Shown here in pieces: positions 21,616 through 41,561 of a DNA stretch of 64,000 nt (positions are counted from its first letter, which is position 1; each line of letters begins with the position of its first letter). The stretch is from Centroscyllium fabricii. Taxonomy: Eukaryota. Both the position numbers and the translations under genes were made by a program. The notes under the pieces are model-generated. The model searched no databases and was not told the origin of the DNA. It saw only the letters and a list, made by a program, of their open reading frames with translations. The stretch is from positions 9,734,001-9,798,000 of the forward strand of contig JBNRSN020000010.1 of assembly GCA_051313645.2 (NCBI GenBank), written 5' to 3'.

Positions 21616-22183
21616 TGTAAGGGTTGGGGTTCAATCCAATTGCAGAACACCGGAGTCTGTCTAATAGAAATAAAGTACCTTTATTCCTAAGTACCAAAAC
21701 ATATAAATATATCAATATACAGAGATCTTTAATCACAGTGCTTAAACAGTGAATGAATAAGTCAATAATCCCGAGTGCCGGTAAACAGCAGTTCACAAGT
21801 CCAAACCCAAGTTGAGGTGGTAGTAGAGACAAGGCCCAAGCCAGGTGCAGAGGTACTCCCAGTAATCCACAATCCAGAAGAGATGAATCCTTGTTCAGAG
21901 TTCAGCAAATAATCTAAATCGACAGAACTGGCAATCCAAAAACGACTGGAATAGAATTCAATATAATATACCAGTAACAGATATAGCAACACTGAACACT
22001 TCAACAAGTGACATGAAAATAACAATCCGACAAAGGCCAAAGGCCAGCAGGTGGTTTATATCCAGCTCTAGCTCAACAGTATACTTGGAGCTGGCCAATC
22101 AGGTGTGAGACATAACAACAGGTAATTAAATCCAATCACAGAAAAGAAGCATAGAAATTTAAAGAGACAGTCCACCCATGACA
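21616..22183 (-). repeat. 3' LTR of sushi-like element
   Basis: Direct repeat of 26717-27284 with about 12 substitutions by eye. Confidence 0.95.
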
Positions 22184-22269
22184 GAACCCCCCCCTTAAGG
22201 GACAACTCCTGACGTCCCCAAAAGCCCCAACAGCCGGTAACGGGTGGGTGGAGGGGTGAGGAGGAGGGA

Positions 22270-25200
22270 CTAACAATCCTCGGGACCCTCGTCAACTACC
22301 ATCTCCTCATCGGATTGAAAAGGATCCACCTGCTCTGCCGATTCAGGCCCCTCGTAATCAGGTGCCACTTTCGTGTCCAGGGCCTCTCGAATCAGAATGG
22401 GGTCGAAAACCTGTCCAGACGTCCTAGGAACCGCCGTCCCTTTTTTAGGCTGGCCAGGGTGTTTCTTGTGAAACTCAGAAATGAGCTGAGGGTCCATAAT
22501 ATGACGAGCAGGAACCCAGGACCTCTCTTCCGGGCCATACCCCTCCCAGTCCACCAGGTATTGAAGTCCCTTCCCTCGACGACGGGAGTCAAGTAGACGA
22601 CGAACCGTGTAGACTAATCCACCGTCGAGCATACGAGGAGGTGGAGGAGTTGCGGCAACGGGTACCAAGGCACTCTCCCGAGTAGGCTTGATGCGCGACA
22701 CGTGAAAAGTAGGGTGGACCCGCATGGATCTGGGGAGCTTGAGTCTCACCGCAGCAGGGTTTATGATTTTTTGCACCTCGAAGGGTCCGATAAATCGGGG
22801 AGCGAGTTTCTTAGATTCGACTTGTAGAGGCAGATCCTTGGTGGAGAGCCAAACCTTTTGCCCAACCCGATACTCCGGAGCCTCAAAATGACGACGGTTG
22901 GCCACAGGCGAGTATCGATCCACCGAGCGAAGCAACGACATCCGCACCTGATCCCATGTCCTGTGACACCGTTGAATGAAGTCCTGGACGGACGGACAGG
23001 ATACCTCCTTCTCCAGGTCTGGAAACATTGGAGGCTGGAATCCATACACGCACTGAAAAGGCGAAAGTCCGGTAGCGGAGCTGGTCAGCATATTGTGAGC
23101 ATACTCCACCCATAATAGTAACTGGGACCAGGAAGAGGGATTCTTGGAGACCATGCACCGAAGTGCCTTCTCCATCTCCTGGTTCATCCTCTCTGACTGT
23201 CCATTGGACTGAGGATGAAATCCCGACGACAGACTGACAGTGGCACCGATAAGACTACAAAATTCCCTCCAGAATATAGATGTGAATTGAGGACCTCGAT
23301 CGGAGACCACTTCCAGCGGAACCCCATGAAGAAGAAACACGTGCTGCAACATGAGTTCCGCTGTTTCCTTAGCAGAGGGCAGCTTGGGTAGGGGTATAAA
23401 ATGAGCCATTTTACTAAATCTGTCTACCACAGTCAGGACCGTGGTCAAACCCTTGGATGAGGGTAATCCGGTGACGAAGTCCAGGGCTATGTGTGACCAA
23501 GGACGATGTGGTACCGGTAGAGGTTGCAGAAGACCAGCAGGAGCCCGACGAGACAACTTGTGTTGCTTACAAACCTGGCATGCATTGACGAACTCCCGGG
23601 TGTCCTCCTACAGCGTGTCCCACCAGAACCTCCGCAAAATGACCTCCTTGGTCCTTTGTGCCCCAGGATGGCAGGACAACTTGGAAGCATGAGCCCACAG
23701 AAGGACATCAGGTCGAATGCTCGCGGGTACAAACAGACGGTCGAGAGGACAACCGCTGGGCCCACCCTGATCCCCCGCAGCTGCTCTCACTCTCTCTTCG
23801 ATCTCCCATGTGACCGCAGCAATAAGGCAGGGAGCTGGCAAAATAAGGTCCGATCCTGGAGTAGAACCCTCCTCCTTCAGGAATAGGCAGGATAGAGCAT
23901 CGGGCTTGACGTTGCGGGAACCAGGCCTGTAGGAGAGATTAAAATTAAACCTTGTGAAAAAGAGAGACCATCTAGCCTGGCGTGAGATTAGTCTCTTAGC
24001 CATACGTATGTATTTCAAATTCTTGTGGTCAGTCCAAACAAGAAACGGCAGCTTGGTCCCCTCCAGCCAGTGGCGCCACTCCTCTAAGGCCATCTTGACC
24101 GCCAGTAATTCCCAGTTTCCGATATCATAATTCATCTCCGCCGGAGACAGGCGCTTGGAGAAATAGGCACATGGATGAATCTTCTGGTCAGAAATCGACC
24201 TTTGAGATAAGATGGCTCCAACTCCCACATCAGATGCATCCACCTCCACGACGAACTGTCGATCCGGATCAGGTACCTGGAGAATGGGAGCAGAAGTAAA
24301 TTGGGACCTGAGCTCCTTAAACGCCTCCTCTGCAGCGAGAGACCACCTGAATGGCACCCTTGATGAGGTAAGCGCCAATAACGATGCTGCTACCGTGCTG
24401 TAGCCACGAATAAATTTTCGGTAAAAATTTGCGAACCCCAGAAACCGTTGCAGTTGCTTGCGAGTCTCTGGACTGGGCCAAGACGTAACGGCTGTCACCT
24501 TCTCAGGATCCATTCGCACGCTCCCCTGCGCAATAATATATCCCTGGAAGGAGACGGTAGATACATGAAACTCACATTTTTCAGCCTTGACGTGTAAGGA
24601 GTTTTCCAAGAGTCTTTGTAAGACCGTCTGAACGTGGTGCACATGCTCCTCCTGAGTTTTCGAAAATATCAGGATGTCATCCATATAAATGAACACAAAG
24701 CGATTTAGCTTGTCCCGAAGAACGTCATTGACCAGGGCCTGAAATACCGCCGGGGCGTTGGTCAGCCCGAACGGCATAACGAGATACTCGTAATATCCAG
24801 AAGGAGTGTTGAAGGCGGTCTTCCACTCATCGCCCTCCCGTATCCGGACCAGATGGTAAGCGTTGCGAAGGTCTAATTTTGAAAAGATGATTGACCCCTG
24901 AATCAACTCAAACGCCGAAGAGATAAGAGGAAGAGGATACCGATTCTTGACAGTAATCTCGTTTAGTCCCCTGTAATCAATACAAGGTCGGAGCGAACCG
25001 TCTTTCCTTCCTACAAAAAAGAATCCAGCCCCCGCTGGTGACGAAGAAGAACGGATGATCCCCGCTGCCATTGAGTCTCCGATATAGGTCTCCATGGTCT
25101 CCCTCTCAGGTGCAGATAGTGAATACAGGCGCCCCCTAGGTGGGGAAGAGCCTGGAAACAATTCAATGGCACAATCGTAGGGGCGATGTGGAGGTAGCGC

Positions 25201-25812
25201 CGAGGCTCTAGCCTTACTAAACACCTCCCCAAAATCATGATACTCGGTGGGACCCGCAGAAAGATCAGAAGTGGGAAGAGGTGTGACAGACTGGCGGATT
25301 ACGGTAGCTTGCTTCAAACAGATCTGGTGACAGGAGTGATTCCAACCCAAAATGGCTCCCATGTTCCAGTCGATGTGGGGATTGTGACGACGAAGCCACG
25401 TGTGTCCTAGAATAAGAGGAAGCCGGGGCGAATCCAGGATATGAAAGCGAATGCTCTCATGATGGTTTCCTGACAACAGTAAATGAATCGGCGACGTTTG
25501 ATGAGTCACCGTTCCCAGGAGGTGACCATCAAGAGCATTGGCAGAAACCGGTTGCGGCAGTCGACACCAGTCGATCCCCAATTGTGTAACCAGCTCCTCA
25601 TCAATGATATTGACATCCGCTCCCGAGTCAATGAAGATGGCGAACATCTGAGATCCTGAAGGAAGAAGAAGTCGGGCCTGGCACAAGGGTCGTGAATCAG
25701 AAGAGAGTCTAGTCGGAGTTCGGCTCACCAGTATGACTCCATCTACTGGTGAGTCCGGTCTTTTACCGGACACTGAAAAACAAAATGGCCGGCCTGACCA
25801 CAGTATAAGCAT
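22270..25812 (-). pseudogene. pol polyprotein (protease, RT, RNase H, integrase, chromodomain) with one premature stop
   Basis: FIDSGAD protease; [17 protein letters not shown]; [11 protein letters not shown] RNase H. HHCC is split by a TAG at 23608-23610 and continues in frame. Then SDRGPQF/NGQSER integrase and [15 protein letters not shown] chromodomain. Confidence 0.92.
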
Positions 25813-26699
25813 AGATTTTCCCTGCGGCGCCGACTCCGCTCTAATGGTGAGATGCCAGTGCGACCCAACTGCATCGGTTCGGGGCCCCCTGACGTAGCCG
25901 AATCTCTGGATGCTACGTATCCCTCCTGAACCCGCTTAGCTGGATGGCGAACCGTTGTTCCCAGCCTTCTCTCACGTTGACGTGCCTGGATCCGTAGATC
26001 GATCCTAGTGGCTAAGCTAATGATCTCATCCAAGGTGGAAGGGAGATCATGTGACACCAACTCATCCTTGATGTACCCTGCCAATCCGTGAAGGAAAACC
26101 TCACACAAAGCAGCCATGTTCCAATTGCTCAAACGAGCCTTAATACGAAAGTCAATAGCGTAATCAACAACAGCCTGATTACCCTGGCTCATGCTCATGA
26201 GACCTTCAGCCGCTTCAGCCCCAAAGGATACCTTGCCAAAAACCCTTCTTAATTCATTTGAAAATGTCCTGAACGAACTGCAAGCCTGAGTTTCTCTCTC
26301 CCACTCGGCTGTTCCCCAAAGTCGAGCTCTTCCTGAGAGATGGTTTATAACAAAAGCTACCCTTGCCTTTTCGCTGGCAAAGGTGCGAGGTTGTAAAGAA
26401 AAAAGGATAGAACAATTGGTAATAAATGGATCGCACTGTTCCCATTCACCGGCATAACGTTCCGGTACCCCGACTCGGGGCTCGGGTGTGATACTCTATA
26501 GGAGAGACATGGAAGTCGATTCCGATGTCGAGACCGGTTCTGATGTGGAAGAAGTCCCTGCCGGGTCCGATGCAGCTTGCGCCCTCCAGGCGGAGGTTAG
26601 CTGTTCCATTTTAGAAAACATCTCCCCAAAGGCCCGACCTTGGTGTGCTAGGGCGTACTCAATGAGTGCCAGACGTCTCGGTGTCTCCGCTGGGTCCTT
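25743..26699 (-). pseudogene. gag (capsid plus CCHC zinc knuckle), start apparently mutated, one premature stop
   Basis: The frame begins KDPAE (AAG where ATG is expected), has TAG at 26496-26498, then PERYAGE..., [34 protein letters not shown]. It overlaps pol, implying a frameshift. Confidence 0.85.
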
Positions 26700-26704
26700 G
26701 ATTG

Positions 26705-26715
26705 GTCGGATTGTT
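26705..26715 (-). promoter_or_regulatory. Non-tRNA (self-priming) primer-binding site
   Basis: Minus-strand aacaatccgac, 1 nt after the 5' LTR, is exactly complementary to gtcggattgtt at 27132-27122, which starts 29 nt downstream of the TATA start. Confidence 0.8.
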
Positions 26716-26716
26716 C

Positions 26717-27284
26717 TGTAAGGGTTGGGGTTGAACCCAATTGCAGAACACCGGAGTCTGTCTAATAGAAATAAAATACCTTTATTCCTTAGTACCAAAA
26801 CATATAAATATATCAATATACAGAGATCTTTAACCACAGTGCTTAAACAGTGAATGAATAAGTCAATAATCCCGAGTGCCGGTAAACAGCAGTTCACTAG
26901 TCCAAACCCAAGTTCAGGTGGTAGTAGAGACAAGGCCCAAGCCAGGTGCTGAGGTACTCCCAGTAATCCACAATCCAGAAGAGATAAATCCTTGTTCAGA
27001 GTTCAGCAAATAATCCAAATCGACAGAACTGGCAATCCAAAAACGACTGGAATAGAACTCAATATAATATACCAGTAACAGATACAGCAACACTGAACAC
27101 TTCAACAAGTGACATGAAAATAACAATCCGACAAAGGCCAAAGGCCAGCAGGTGGTTTATATCCAGCTCTAGCTCAACAGTATACTTGGAGCTGGCCAAT
27201 CAGGTGTGAGACATAACAACAGGTAATTAAATCCAATCACAGAAAAGAAGCATAGAAATTTAAAGAGACAGTCCACCCATGACA
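26717..27284 (-). repeat. 5' LTR of sushi-like element
   Basis: Direct repeat; minus-strand TATAAA at 27156-27161. Confidence 0.95.
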
Positions 27285-33899: not shown

Positions 33900-34297
33900 G
33901 TGAGCCATTCTAACCACGTTGTTATTAATCGGTGTTATCCGTCTCACTGTTCAAGTCGTATGTTGAATAAGGTAAATGTTTTACTGATGTCTCCGCACTT
34001 TTCAAGTTGCCCATGATAGCATAACGTTACTGATGTTACAAACTTCTTTGTAGCTCCAACACAAGGATTTTAGCGGATCTCCGGACCGTTTCTCAGACCG
34101 TCCGGGTTAAATGCTGAAGCAGCTCATTAAAATATGTGGGTGGGATTCCCAGGTACTGATGCCAAAACTAATCCTGTTCGCACACTGCTCCGTGTTGATA
34201 ATCTCCCTGAATGGAGTATAATACTCTCCACCGCTATCTCCTTATAGAGCTCAATCAGATAATGGAATATTATTTATCTACACTCTCTTTCTTACAG

Positions 34298-35217
34298 CGA
34301 ACTTGGTGACAATCATGATTCTCTCTCGAGGAAACTGCGGTCTCTCCAAGTGTATCTCTGTCTATATGGTGGCCATGGCAACATCAGATCTGCTGGTCAT
34401 GATCTTCAATGTGATGGCGTATTATATTTTCAGTTATCATTTTCCATTTTCATTCCTGTCCCACACTCCCGTGTGTAAGTTCAATCTATATATGAATGCT
34501 GTTACCTTGGATTTGTCTGTCTGGTTCACCGTCTCCTTCACATTTGACCGATTTATAGTTATCTGCAGCCAGAAGTTTAAAGTAAAGTATTGCACCGAGA
34601 GAAGTGCGGCCGCGGTTATATCAGCGTTCACGTTGCTGAGTTTTCTAAAGGGCATCATAGCATTCATTGCATATGAACCTCAGCAAATAATTAGCAACGT
34701 GGAGTGGGGCTGTCAATCAAGTGTAGCTTTTTTTTCCTTATCTTCAGTGATAGCGTATCTCTGGTTTCACATCATATGGCTCGTTTGGCTTCCTTTTGCG
34801 TTAATGGCCTTGTTTAATTGTTTGACAGTCAGACGTATTTTTGTGGCCAGCAGAGCCCGCAGGGGACTCCGGTCTCAGAGTAGTAAGAATCAGAGCGATC
34901 CAGAGATGGATAATCGAAGAAAATCCATCATTTTGCTCTTCGCTGTATCGGGAAGCTTTATATTACTGTGGCTGACAACTGCCGTGACTTTTCAAATTAC
35001 CAGAATGACAAACATCAATTATTACCGAGGCGAACGCACAAACCCAGCGTATATCGCCACTGAAACTGGAGTAATGCTGAAGCTTTTGAGTTCCTGTACC
35101 AACACGTGTATTTATGCAGCGACCCAGAGGACATTTAGAGAAGAGCTGAAGAAGTTGCTGAAATTTCCATGGACACTGATTCTGAGATTGGTTAAACATG
35201 AAAAAAACTCGAACTAG
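34298..35217 (+). CDS. GPR139/GPR142-like class A GPCR, coding exon 2 (spliced protein 329 aa)
   Basis: Acceptor ctctctttcttacag. Open frame with hydrophobic TM segments, ANLVT (TM1), MATSDLLV (TM2), FTFDRF (DRY variant), WLVWLPF (TM5), SSCTNTCIY (NPxxY variant), stop at 35217. 70+920=990 nt with no disruptions. AATAAA near 35824. Confidence 0.92.
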
Positions 35218-38076: not shown

Positions 38077-39100
38077 GGGCCAGAAATACGCGTCCCCACG
38101 GGTAAGTACACAATGGCCCAGAAATTAGACTCTCCCGTTTATGCGGGTGCTAGGACCATGCGGTCACCTAACGCACCGCACCATAATCGGACATTTTTTA
38201 CGAATAAACCTTCCTGCGTTCTCCGCCCCGTTCCTGGGCTGCGTGGCAGTCCAGCCACGCTAGGAGCGTAATATATGCGCTGCCGTCGTGCCTGCATTGG
38301 AGTGAAGCCCCGCCCACTGATCCCTAATTTAAATACAAAACGCCCCCTGCTTCACAGTCGAACTTCGTAGGAAGCAGTGACGTGAGGCCTCGATTAGGAC
38401 CACGCCCACTGCTGCACACACAGACTCGGCAGTGAGCAATGCGGCCAGAGCAGATTTTCAACGGTGGTAAGTATCAGCGATTTTTTCTCTAATTTTTTTA
38501 AATTATCTAAATATTTAAACATTTCTGAAGTTAAAGTTTAAAAATAAGCGATTTGGAACAGATAGCAGTGTGTTTAACAATTGAAATTCAGATATTTATA
38601 ATTAAAAACAAACGTTAACACCCAATTTAAATGATAGCGATCTGGCCACATAACTCAAAAAAATTGATAAAACTTAAAATTAAAGGTAAAAAAGTCACTT
38701 ACCTTGTTTAAGAACGCACTGCTCTCACCAACGCACAGCTAACGACTGCTTTTTTCCCGTGATGCTCCAAGCGCATTTGCCCACAGATGTACGCACAGAA
38801 TCACAACGATAAACATCGGGATTTTTCGGTGCAATTCTTGTGTGCGTTCCATGCTGAGTCCTCTTCTGCCTCAGCATCGGAAAGCCCGCATTCATGCGCA
38901 TTCCCCGTGCAATAGCTGGCACGGGGTATTAGGCTCCATTCCTGCGGGTGCTAATCGTGGGATCGATCGGAATTTCTGGCCCTTTATTTTAAAAAGGTGA
39001 TTTCTTTACATGAGTGTGTGTACTCCCGCATCGGCCCAACGAAACTGGCGTCTCCGTGCAAGCACTGTTCATGCGCGGTGAACCCTAAATTCCATTCCCT
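38077..39100. mobile_element. Nested MITEs: inner 38115-38982 within an outer GGGCC-ended element
   Basis: Outer start aat|gggccagaaata. Inner ggcccagaaatt ... aatttctggccc. The outer dyad cgggtaagtacaca / tgtgtactcccg is split by the inner element. The outer right end is uncertain. Confidence 0.6.
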
Positions 39101-40639
39101 CAAATGAATGTGTTCACAGGTCGAACACATGTGCCGGACAGCCAGCGCCTATGCCTGGAACTTATGGTTTCTCCATGTTTCACCGGGATTTTGTTCGTGG
39201 CTTTGTTTAAGGGGCTAATGGTAGATAAGCCAATTATATGTTTCTGAGCTGCCCTGCCCGCTATGCGTTTGTTAATCGCATTTCCACTTCCTGATTCTGA
39301 GCTCAGCATTTATTGAGCGGTAATAAAGATAAACAAGCAGATCAGTAGATTGTTAAAAGGAAAACCAATGCTTATGAACAGAAGCTAAAACTATAAGATA
39401 AAAAGAATCCTGCAGAAGATAAGTGTTACTGTGAATGCAATAGAGGTTTGCAATTACAGGGGTGGAAGGAATGGACACATCGAGTGAACAATTCGAAAAA
39501 AACACAATTTTTGTCAATACCCCTTTAACTCCCACCCTTGCACTTATCGAGATTATATTTTGACGAATCAAAAGGATAATGCTCACCAGCCTTAGATATT
39601 GAAAATACTTGCTCCATGCCCTGTTGCTTGCCGATGTATCATGTTTTCACCGTCCGAAGCAGAGAGATACTGCAGTGATTTAAAATGCACTGCGGGTGTT
39701 CTTCCACTGGACGGGCTCTTACGTGAGGGAGCTGGCTTACTTGACAACACTAGTTATATCTTTCCCGGTGTTCCTAATCTCCCAACAGATCAGCACATTT
39801 CTATTGTGTAATCTGGGCATAATGAATTTTAAAATAAGCCTGCGTGCTAGGCCCATCCTGTTGGATGTTCGTAATCATTTTTTATCTGGACTTCTCAGTG
39901 TCCCCCTTTGTCCTGGAGGTATTTAAGATGGTCTATTCCTAACTAGACATATCGGCTTCCTGCTGTGGATGGTCTGTGCAAATAAATTTCAGGTGCTTCA
40001 ATCGGAGGCCCGATTGCTTCTAATACATAATTGCTTAAGCTTTGTGTGCTTTCAGCTTTCTAGACAAGTCTGCAGTCTTTGTAATACACAGCCTCTTACT
40101 CCACGGTGATATTTACAGGCCTGGTATCATGGGGCTGACTGTGTCCATTTTGTCCTGCCCTGGATTTTTAAATTTCGTCCAAACAGGGTTTCTTTGATAA
40201 ACCAAATAAATCTTCTGCAGTGGAGGCATGACATTTTTTGAATCATTTCAGTCCCCTCTAGGACACTGAAACTTGCTTGAGGTGTCCAATCAAGGACAGC
40301 AACATTTCTGACCCCACAACTAACCTTGCAGTGTATTTATCTATCCACGACCTCACGACACTAGCATTCCCCCAATAAAATGAGAAAGACATTTTGGCAT
40401 ACCAGAAGAATCCGGAGACATCAAATACTGTAACTTACATCAATATACAATTGCACAGGTGGTCCAACACCCCTGCACCACTTCGCACGTTACAACATTG
40501 TTACATTCAAACGCAAACCTTATTAACATAGCAAACGGAAGTGAAAATCTTTATTAAAAATAACAAAACGGAATGAACGATCTATATTAAAAATAGTAAA
40601 GGAAAACTGACATCACCCTATGTTGATATGACACAGAAC

Positions 40640-41059
40640 TCACGCGGCTGTTTCATCAGACCGAGTATACTGGTCCTCCCATACCCTTTGTGCCCTAACC
40701 ACGACTTCGCGCCGCCATTTCCTATACAGAATGTAAACCAGGTAGAGGACGATTCCAAGCAGAAATATTACAAGCAAGTCTGATGCCAGATGAATCCATG
40801 AGGGGTCCTCGATATTCTCAACGATGTCGCACCAGGGTGGGGTCTTAATACTTAGAGAATCGGCCCCTAACTGGAATGCGTTTCCTTGCAGTGTGTAGAA
40901 TTGCTGTTGTGACACTACTACGACTTTTAATATTTTACTGCGGTGTTCTGTGAGAGGGAGGATCTAGTAATCTAATTGGTATATATACTTTTTGAGGTCT
41001 GTAAAGTTCTCTTTGACAGTTAGGTGAACCGTGGAATGATAAGTAATGGGGACAACTCG
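40640..41059 (-). pseudogene. env/fusion-glycoprotein-like C-terminal remnant (heptad-like segment, Trp-rich stretch, TM, basic tail)
   Basis: Extending ORF 40640-40915 upstream through one TAG (40964-40966) gives RVVPITYHSTVHLTVKENFTDLKKYIYQLDY*ILPLTEHRSKILKVVVVSQQQFYTLQGNAFQLGADSLSIKTPPWCDIVENIEDPSWIHLASDLLVIFLLGIVLYLVYILYRKWRR. The family is inferred from architecture only. Confidence 0.5.
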
Positions 41060-41561
41060 TTACAGTGCCACTTCAACTTCTGAACACTTCTAATAAATCT
41101 TTATTCATCCGTCTCTTCTCTGAGGAGAAGTAACCAAGTGTCTCCACTCTATTCACATAACTGAAGTCCCACTTCACTGGAACCGTTATTGCAAATATTT
41201 CCTGCATCCCATTTAAAGCTTTCATATCTTTGTGAATTTGCAGTCCACCGGCTCATCAGAATACCTTGCTTTTGTACTCCACGCCTCTCTTTATGAAGCA
41301 AATGATCGCTTATGCTTTTTTAATCGCTTTCGCAATCTGCCTTCCACCTTCGAAAATTTGTGCACATATACTCCCAGGTCTCTGTCCATGTAACTCTTTT
41401 AGCATTGTATCCTTTTATTTCAACACGTAATTCCTGCCAAAATTGTATCACTTCACACTTTATTGCGTTAATTTTTTTCTATCCCGTGTCTGCCCATTCC
41501 ACCTTTCCGGCTATGTGCGCTTGAAGTCTATTACTATGCTCCTCGCTATTTGCTATGTGCC

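Follow-up and report, generated by a model that had tools for sequence, protein, structure and literature searches.

A decayed provirus end in the shark Centroscyllium fabricii, likely of the snakehead-retrovirus lineage, and the predicted F-type envelope of its family

Within a 64,000-nucleotide stretch of the Centroscyllium fabricii genome (NCBI GenBank assembly GCA_051313645.2, contig JBNRSN020000010.1, positions 9,734,001 to 9,798,000; hereafter the window), the minus strand carries the end of a retroviral envelope gene (env) followed by a long terminal repeat (LTR). We are confident that it is what remains, at the 3' end, of a decayed and 5'-truncated copy of an abundant, multi-copy endogenous retrovirus (ERV) family, likely of the snakehead retrovirus (SnRV; clade Huo/class III) lineage, with an envelope predicted to be of the F type. 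Sibling copies show the complete order of LTR, primer-binding site, gag, pro, pol, env, polypurine tract (PPT) and LTR, with a short target duplication, while the window holds only the env end, the PPT and the LTR.

The provirus remnant in the window

The features of the remnant, all on the minus strand, are as follows.

40640..41083, minus: env 3' remnant, corresponding to residues 643-790 of an open 790-codon relative; broken by stops
40727..40783, minus: predicted transmembrane helix (Kyte-Doolittle 19-residue mean 2.5), aligning with that of the open relative
40723-40709, minus: RKWRR after the transmembrane helix
40260..40639, minus: non-coding spacer from env stop to PPT, about 380 nt
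40251..40259, minus: PPT immediately ahead of the LTR: purines rich in G, then TG, as also in env-linked copies
39192..40250, minus: 3' LTR of an old subfamily, 1059 bp, TG...CA; placed by match boundaries and solo-LTR ends
41084..41400, minus: unrelated DNA abutting the truncated env, presumably a CR1-type LINE (long interspersed element) fragment

The translated frame runs from 41059 to 40640 with a single TAG at 40966-40964, and encodes, in order, the end of the ectodomain, a heptad-like helix, a tryptophan- and proline-rich membrane-proximal segment, the transmembrane helix and a short tail. The initial annotation, made from the sequence alone, had read this as an env-like gene end, and homology agrees, at a level far beyond chance: between 41083 and 40643 the window is 47% identical over 148 residues to the open 790-codon env from the same genome (tblastn, E 1e-34; blastp, E 9e-26). 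DNA similarity to family relatives ends at 41082. Beyond the env tail, the family Gag, Pol and Env queries matched only Gypsy pol in the window, at 26-30%. The window copy is 5'-truncated and lacks the 5' nine-tenths of the provirus. It is dead and decaying close to neutrality, with a ratio of non-synonymous to synonymous substitution rates (dN/dS) of 0.72 between its env fragment and an old sibling.

Searched as DNA in the 7.2-Gb genome of the same species, positions 39100-41060 gave 63 matches in the 40 of 2914 candidates that were scored. The env side was included at 11 loci, and most of the other matches begin at window position 40250 or further in and end near 39199. The limits of the LTR and the PPT follow from these match boundaries, from the TG and CA ends and from the target duplications of the copies. 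The LTR unit of the copies likewise opens with TG, next to the G-rich purines, and closes with CA. Solo LTRs are flanked by 4-bp target duplications that are exact in five of seven cases, carry one mismatch in one and are missing in one.

With these limits, the 3' end is arranged otherwise than annotated. The purine run AAGGGTGGGAG does lie at 39539-39529, but it is a conserved motif inside the LTR and not the PPT. Similarly, the AATAAA near 39310 is present, but its role was not confirmed and it is private to the window copy (0 of 11 other aligned LTRs); 6 of the 11 carry one some 60 nt upstream of that position, at a distance of about 184 nt from the end of the LTR. The 1.1 kb suspected of holding accessory genes turned out to be largely LTR; env stop and LTR are only 390 nt apart in the window and 382-440 nt in young copies. 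Across the window copy, 7 old copies and 13 young ones, no shared ATG open reading frame (ORF) of note was found between env and the LTR end. In three of ten young copies, the DNA from env stop to LTR end is free of ATG ORFs of 50 codons, the remaining ones have nothing in common beyond a 51-codon frame in three, and in the old LTRs no shared position holds ORFs beyond those of shuffled sequences. Against 11 other LTRs, whose mutual identity is 85-92%, the window LTR reaches 76.5-81.9% and therefore represents an old or outlying branch.

Anatomy of the family

Mapping covered the flanking DNA of 11 env-side, 20 integrase and 13 open-env loci. The element is about 11 kb long and ordered as LTR, primer site, gag, protease (DTG), reverse transcriptase (RT; YVDD), tether, second RNase H, integrase, env, about 390 nt, PPT and LTR. 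An env-carrying ERV, as annotated, is thereby confirmed from gag- and pol-linked siblings with LTR pairs; a host exon, or single-copy sequence lacking such relatives and LTR pairs, was also checked for, and the region proved to be multi-copy. The gag gene encodes a coiled coil, a capsid region and a CCHC knuckle (Pfam zf-CCHC), and is in frame with pol. Tether and second RNase H were recognised as Pfam RT_RNaseH followed by RNase_H in one frame. The C-terminal module of the integrase is GPY-like, with a weak match to Pfam SH3_Tf2-1. All ten young copies checked and four old copies have one in-frame UGA ahead of pol, from which we infer that Gag-Pol is made by stop readthrough.

The primer sites pair without mismatch with the 3' ends of genomic tRNA-Arg(ACG) (3 of 3 loci called) and tRNA-Arg(UCG) (1 of 5 loci called cleanly). 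Among subfamilies there are at least four different primer sites (L056, L108, L154, L158). Two of them match the tRNA-Arg(ACG) and (UCG) genes, and the other two resemble further Arg isoacceptors.

Some copies lack pol altogether. In two of three fetched copies of an 841-codon env subfamily, gag is directly followed by env, and one of the two has LTRs that are 99.4% alike. The same arrangement was seen in two old copies (pol-less loci overall: L156, L158, L021, L029). These derivatives were likely mobilised in trans.

The envelope

The full env frame has a signal peptide, an R-x-R-R site, a fusion-peptide-like stretch, heptads and a transmembrane helix. Its low-confidence structural model matches the fusion proteins (F) of paramyxo- and pneumoviruses and the foamy virus Env, and the envelope is thus predicted to fold as an F-type class I fusogen, unlike ordinary retroviral envelopes. 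Its N-terminus likely forms an immunoglobulin (Ig)-like domain, as suggested by the model. Searches of env against Pfam, and single-sequence searches against the PDB, gave no fusion-protein family, and a single-sequence fold of its C-terminal half reached a predicted local distance difference test (pLDDT) score of 37.

Most classifications divide the envelopes of retroviruses into gamma- and beta-types. The annotation had noted that no CX6CC and no immunosuppressive motif lie in the preserved part, and inspection of the full env frame extends this to the whole protein. With gamma-type Env bearing an IgV-like receptor-binding domain (bioRxiv 10.1101/2024.03.17.585361; 10.1101/2021.11.23.469661) the shark env shares the Ig-like N-terminal domain, but it differs from it in these two absences and in a fusion core that is predicted F-type. 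Compared with foamy Env (PMC11468914) and with paramyxo- and pneumovirus F, it has a conventional N-terminal signal peptide and no evident large inserted receptor-binding domain.

Two side observations concern related envelopes. The ranking of BFVD matches places the Env models of walleye epidermal hyperplasia virus 1 (3rd) and of walleye dermal sarcoma virus (WDSV; 10th) amid F-type proteins, a hint that epsilonretrovirus Env may also be of the F type. In the ESM Atlas, a bamboo-shark env homologue led to one unnamed chordate cluster at 0.82, which serves as a lead only.

Placement among retroviruses

Counted by eye in the RT, over P0004 residues 11-54, the family is identical to SnRV at 33 of 44 positions, to WDSV at 26, to ZFERV-2 at 24, and to HERV-L and the lokiretrovirus Loki-Lch at 22 each. 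The reference rows are published ones, and the comparison holds at the motif level only. The difference between 33 matches to SnRV and 22 to the lokiretrovirus makes it likely that the family belongs to clade Huo/class III ERVs, and not with lokiretroviruses or foamy viruses. The RNase H motif also resembles that of SnRV, and further features in common are the gag-pol stop readthrough, inferred here, and a length of about 11 kb. The 1996 description of SnRV is said to report a tRNA-Arg primer and a coiled-coil Gag. Trees were built from 64 rows (FastTree) and from 38 rows chosen from 130 (IQ-TREE). In the latter, the family is supported at 100/100 and lies within the retrovirus clade (100/100), apart from Gypsy and outside the gamma/epsilon-like clade. 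Its nearest neighbours are coelacanth and frog Pol sequences (84/92), both of which share the LDISNGFW motif with the family.

ERVs related to SnRV are known as clade Huo (PMC6001957, PMC8922424), and include CmiERV lineage I of the elephant shark (PMC4422223). In the literature covered, from which subscription papers are mostly missing, F-type env was not found in SnRV-like or shark ERVs.

Several points weigh against this placement and the predicted fold. Because gag and pol are absent from the window, their tie to the window copy runs through sibling loci. The placement leans on by-eye counts over 44 residues and on the moderate support of 84/92, in a tree without SnRV, CmiERV lineage I, lokiretrovirus or foamy rows. 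SnRV reads through UAG (PMC13517186), whereas the shark family has UGA. The SnRV Env tail has 136 residues and is accompanied by 3' ORFs (PMC12193657), in contrast to a tail of about 25-30 residues and no shared 3' ORF here. The env model is of low confidence (mean pLDDT 47, predicted template modelling score 0.36), template modelling scores of its matches are low, and Pfam Fusion_gly (PF00523) was not matched by env. For the Ig-like domain, pLDDT is mostly below 60 and the Pfam Ig_3 E-values are 0.009-0.3. With regard to selection on env, treated below, two pairs of the 841-codon subfamily have a dN/dS of 0.38, based on few changes, and the choice of young copies for open env frames biases dN/dS somewhat.

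The same differences in stop codon, Env tail and 3' ORFs would suit a separate, unnamed deep lineage near the SnRV group, or a recombinant that joined an SnRV-like pol to an epsilon-, foamy- or loki-like env. The long stem of the family (0.59 in the IQ-TREE phylogeny) and the support of its neighbours point the same way, as do the walleye epsilonretrovirus Env models, which score near the top in BFVD (E 6.5e-12), and the fact that env-pol swaps are common in anamniotes. We nevertheless consider this explanation improbable, as RT and RNase H motifs agree with SnRV, and so reportedly do the Arg primer and the coiled-coil Gag.

A lokiretrovirus, which would be the first in cartilaginous fish, was our first reading, based on the F-like env and the dual RNase H. 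Lokiretroviruses have an F-like env with R-x-R-R as well as tether and RNase H, and none of six chondrichthyan genomes was positive in the original screen (both PMC7947760), so that a gap exists. Common to both groups are thus an Env related to the F of Mononegavirales (from a low-confidence model in the shark family), the cleavage motif, and tether plus RNase H; a coiled-coil region before the capsid and the NCBI name "NYNRIN-like" of the nearest Pol matches also speak for this relationship. However, the RT signature motifs differ, and the reading was dropped on the published RT rows: in the rows at hand, lokiretroviruses have PLSRWPM-like and RCPFGY motifs, whereas the shark family has LPQGF, as canonical retroviruses do, in place of CPFGY. 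The coelacanth match P0010 is a sequence other than Loki-Lch, the C. fabricii genome gave no match to a degenerate DNA pattern of the Loki RT motif, and the shark env is about 790 codons long with a likely Ig-like N-terminal domain. A lokiretrovirus is accordingly very unlikely. Of the relation to foamy viruses or lokiretroviruses that the initial annotation had offered, the predicted F-like envelope stands, and the membership does not, since the RT motifs are like those of SnRV.

In foamy viruses (clade Tu), Gag has no CCHC knuckle, Pol is made apart from Gag, and accessory ORFs precede the 3' LTR. A foamy-like ERV or an env-carrying Gypsy element, although consistent with the foamy Env match of the model and the GPY-like integrase module, is hardly credible in view of the zinc-knuckle Gag in frame with pol, the lack of shared or bel-like ORFs before the 3' LTR, RT scores that fall from murine leukaemia virus (E 3e-51) to foamy virus (2e-40) and Ty3 (5e-32), and a dual RNase H together with an RT outside Metaviridae, where Ty3/Gypsy has a single RNase H; Gypsy rows were excluded at 100/100, in line with the annotated lack of a match to the Gypsy elements of the window.

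Spread, selection and proposed life cycle

An env search of the C. fabricii genome gave 11,401 first-look candidates, and about 31 of the 108 that were scored, counted by eye, lie in stop-free frames of at least 787 codons. Pairs of LTRs were found at six of ten open-env loci; they are 1.6-1.7 kb long and 98.0-99.5% identical, and four have readable 4-bp duplications. Between young open-env copies, env dN/dS is 0.10-0.17 in five pairs (dS 0.09-0.16), and between subfamilies it is 0.08-0.12. Spread by reinfection is commonly recognised by a low dN/dS between proviruses, and because env is under purifying selection between proviruses, the young sister subfamilies likely spread through the germline in this way. 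Contigs of four runs from other samples contain many copies that are 85-99% alike, with no bearing on transcription.

For the SnRV-like family, we propose a cycle in which reverse transcription would be primed by tRNA-Arg and the plus strand by the PPT, followed by integration with a 4-bp target duplication. Gag-Pol would be made via UGA readthrough. The Env would be furin-cleaved and trimeric, would probably attach to cells through its Ig-like domain and would fuse membranes by F-like refolding. Repeated infection would colonise the germline; solo-LTR formation and decay would come after, with the window copy as one product.

To our knowledge, F-like retroviral envelopes are known only from foamy viruses and lokiretroviruses. 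The pairing of such an env with a canonical SnRV-type polymerase, in several lineages of sharks and skates, would widen this class and is relevant to the question of what envelope the earliest retroviruses carried. The thousands of env-like candidates, the near-identical LTR pairs and the purifying selection speak for a recent infection of the germline in a species whose genome is large. A wider scenario is tentative and, in our judgement, somewhat more apt to fail than to hold: the F-type fusogen may be the ancestral retroviral envelope, kept by foamy, loki-, snakehead-like and walleye epsilon retroviruses, with cartilaginous fish carrying several such lineages, some recently germline-infecting with an Ig-tipped F, and with an F-type env turned into a host gene in one case or more.

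Other env lineages and neighbouring genes

Envs of this type fall into at least four lineages in the C. fabricii genome. One locus (L146:1459-4011; G000:C933:116220619-116223170, minus strand) has an open 851-codon env of a distant paralogous lineage, 28% identical to the window family. Compared with three siblings that are 84-90% alike, its private changes are 36 synonymous and 8 non-synonymous, with no stops. The siblings show neutral decay, with synonymous, non-synonymous and stop changes of 11:30:2, 32:48:8 and 14:33:5, and 6-12 frame-breaking indels. The integrase next to the open env is broken, and Gypsy elements lie on both sides. On this pattern of changes, the frame is a candidate for a host-captured F-type env. 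In cartilaginous fish, such a selectively preserved copy would be a candidate for a restriction factor or for a fusogen taken over by the host. An open 739-residue env of a related lineage in Chiloscyllium punctatum (P0160, GCC29952.1), annotated as "Ig-like domain-containing protein" and 45% identical to the 851-codon frame, is possibly another preserved env.

A further, degraded env lineage (L136-L145, L161, L171) is 39-46% identical to a Mustelus protein and has its own pol remnants. Three sawshark gene models (P0130, P0144 and P0145, named cadherin-related 5, Niban 1 and zinc finger) contain spliced-in env pieces of the window family and are probably annotation chimeras.

Two other features lie in the window.

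21616-27016, minus: near-complete chromovirus-type Gypsy element with LTRs 97% alike and with gag, protease, RT, RNase H, integrase and chromodomain
34222-35217, plus: single-exon 331-codon frame of a rhodopsin-family G protein-coupled receptor (Pfam 7tm_1, E 9e-20)
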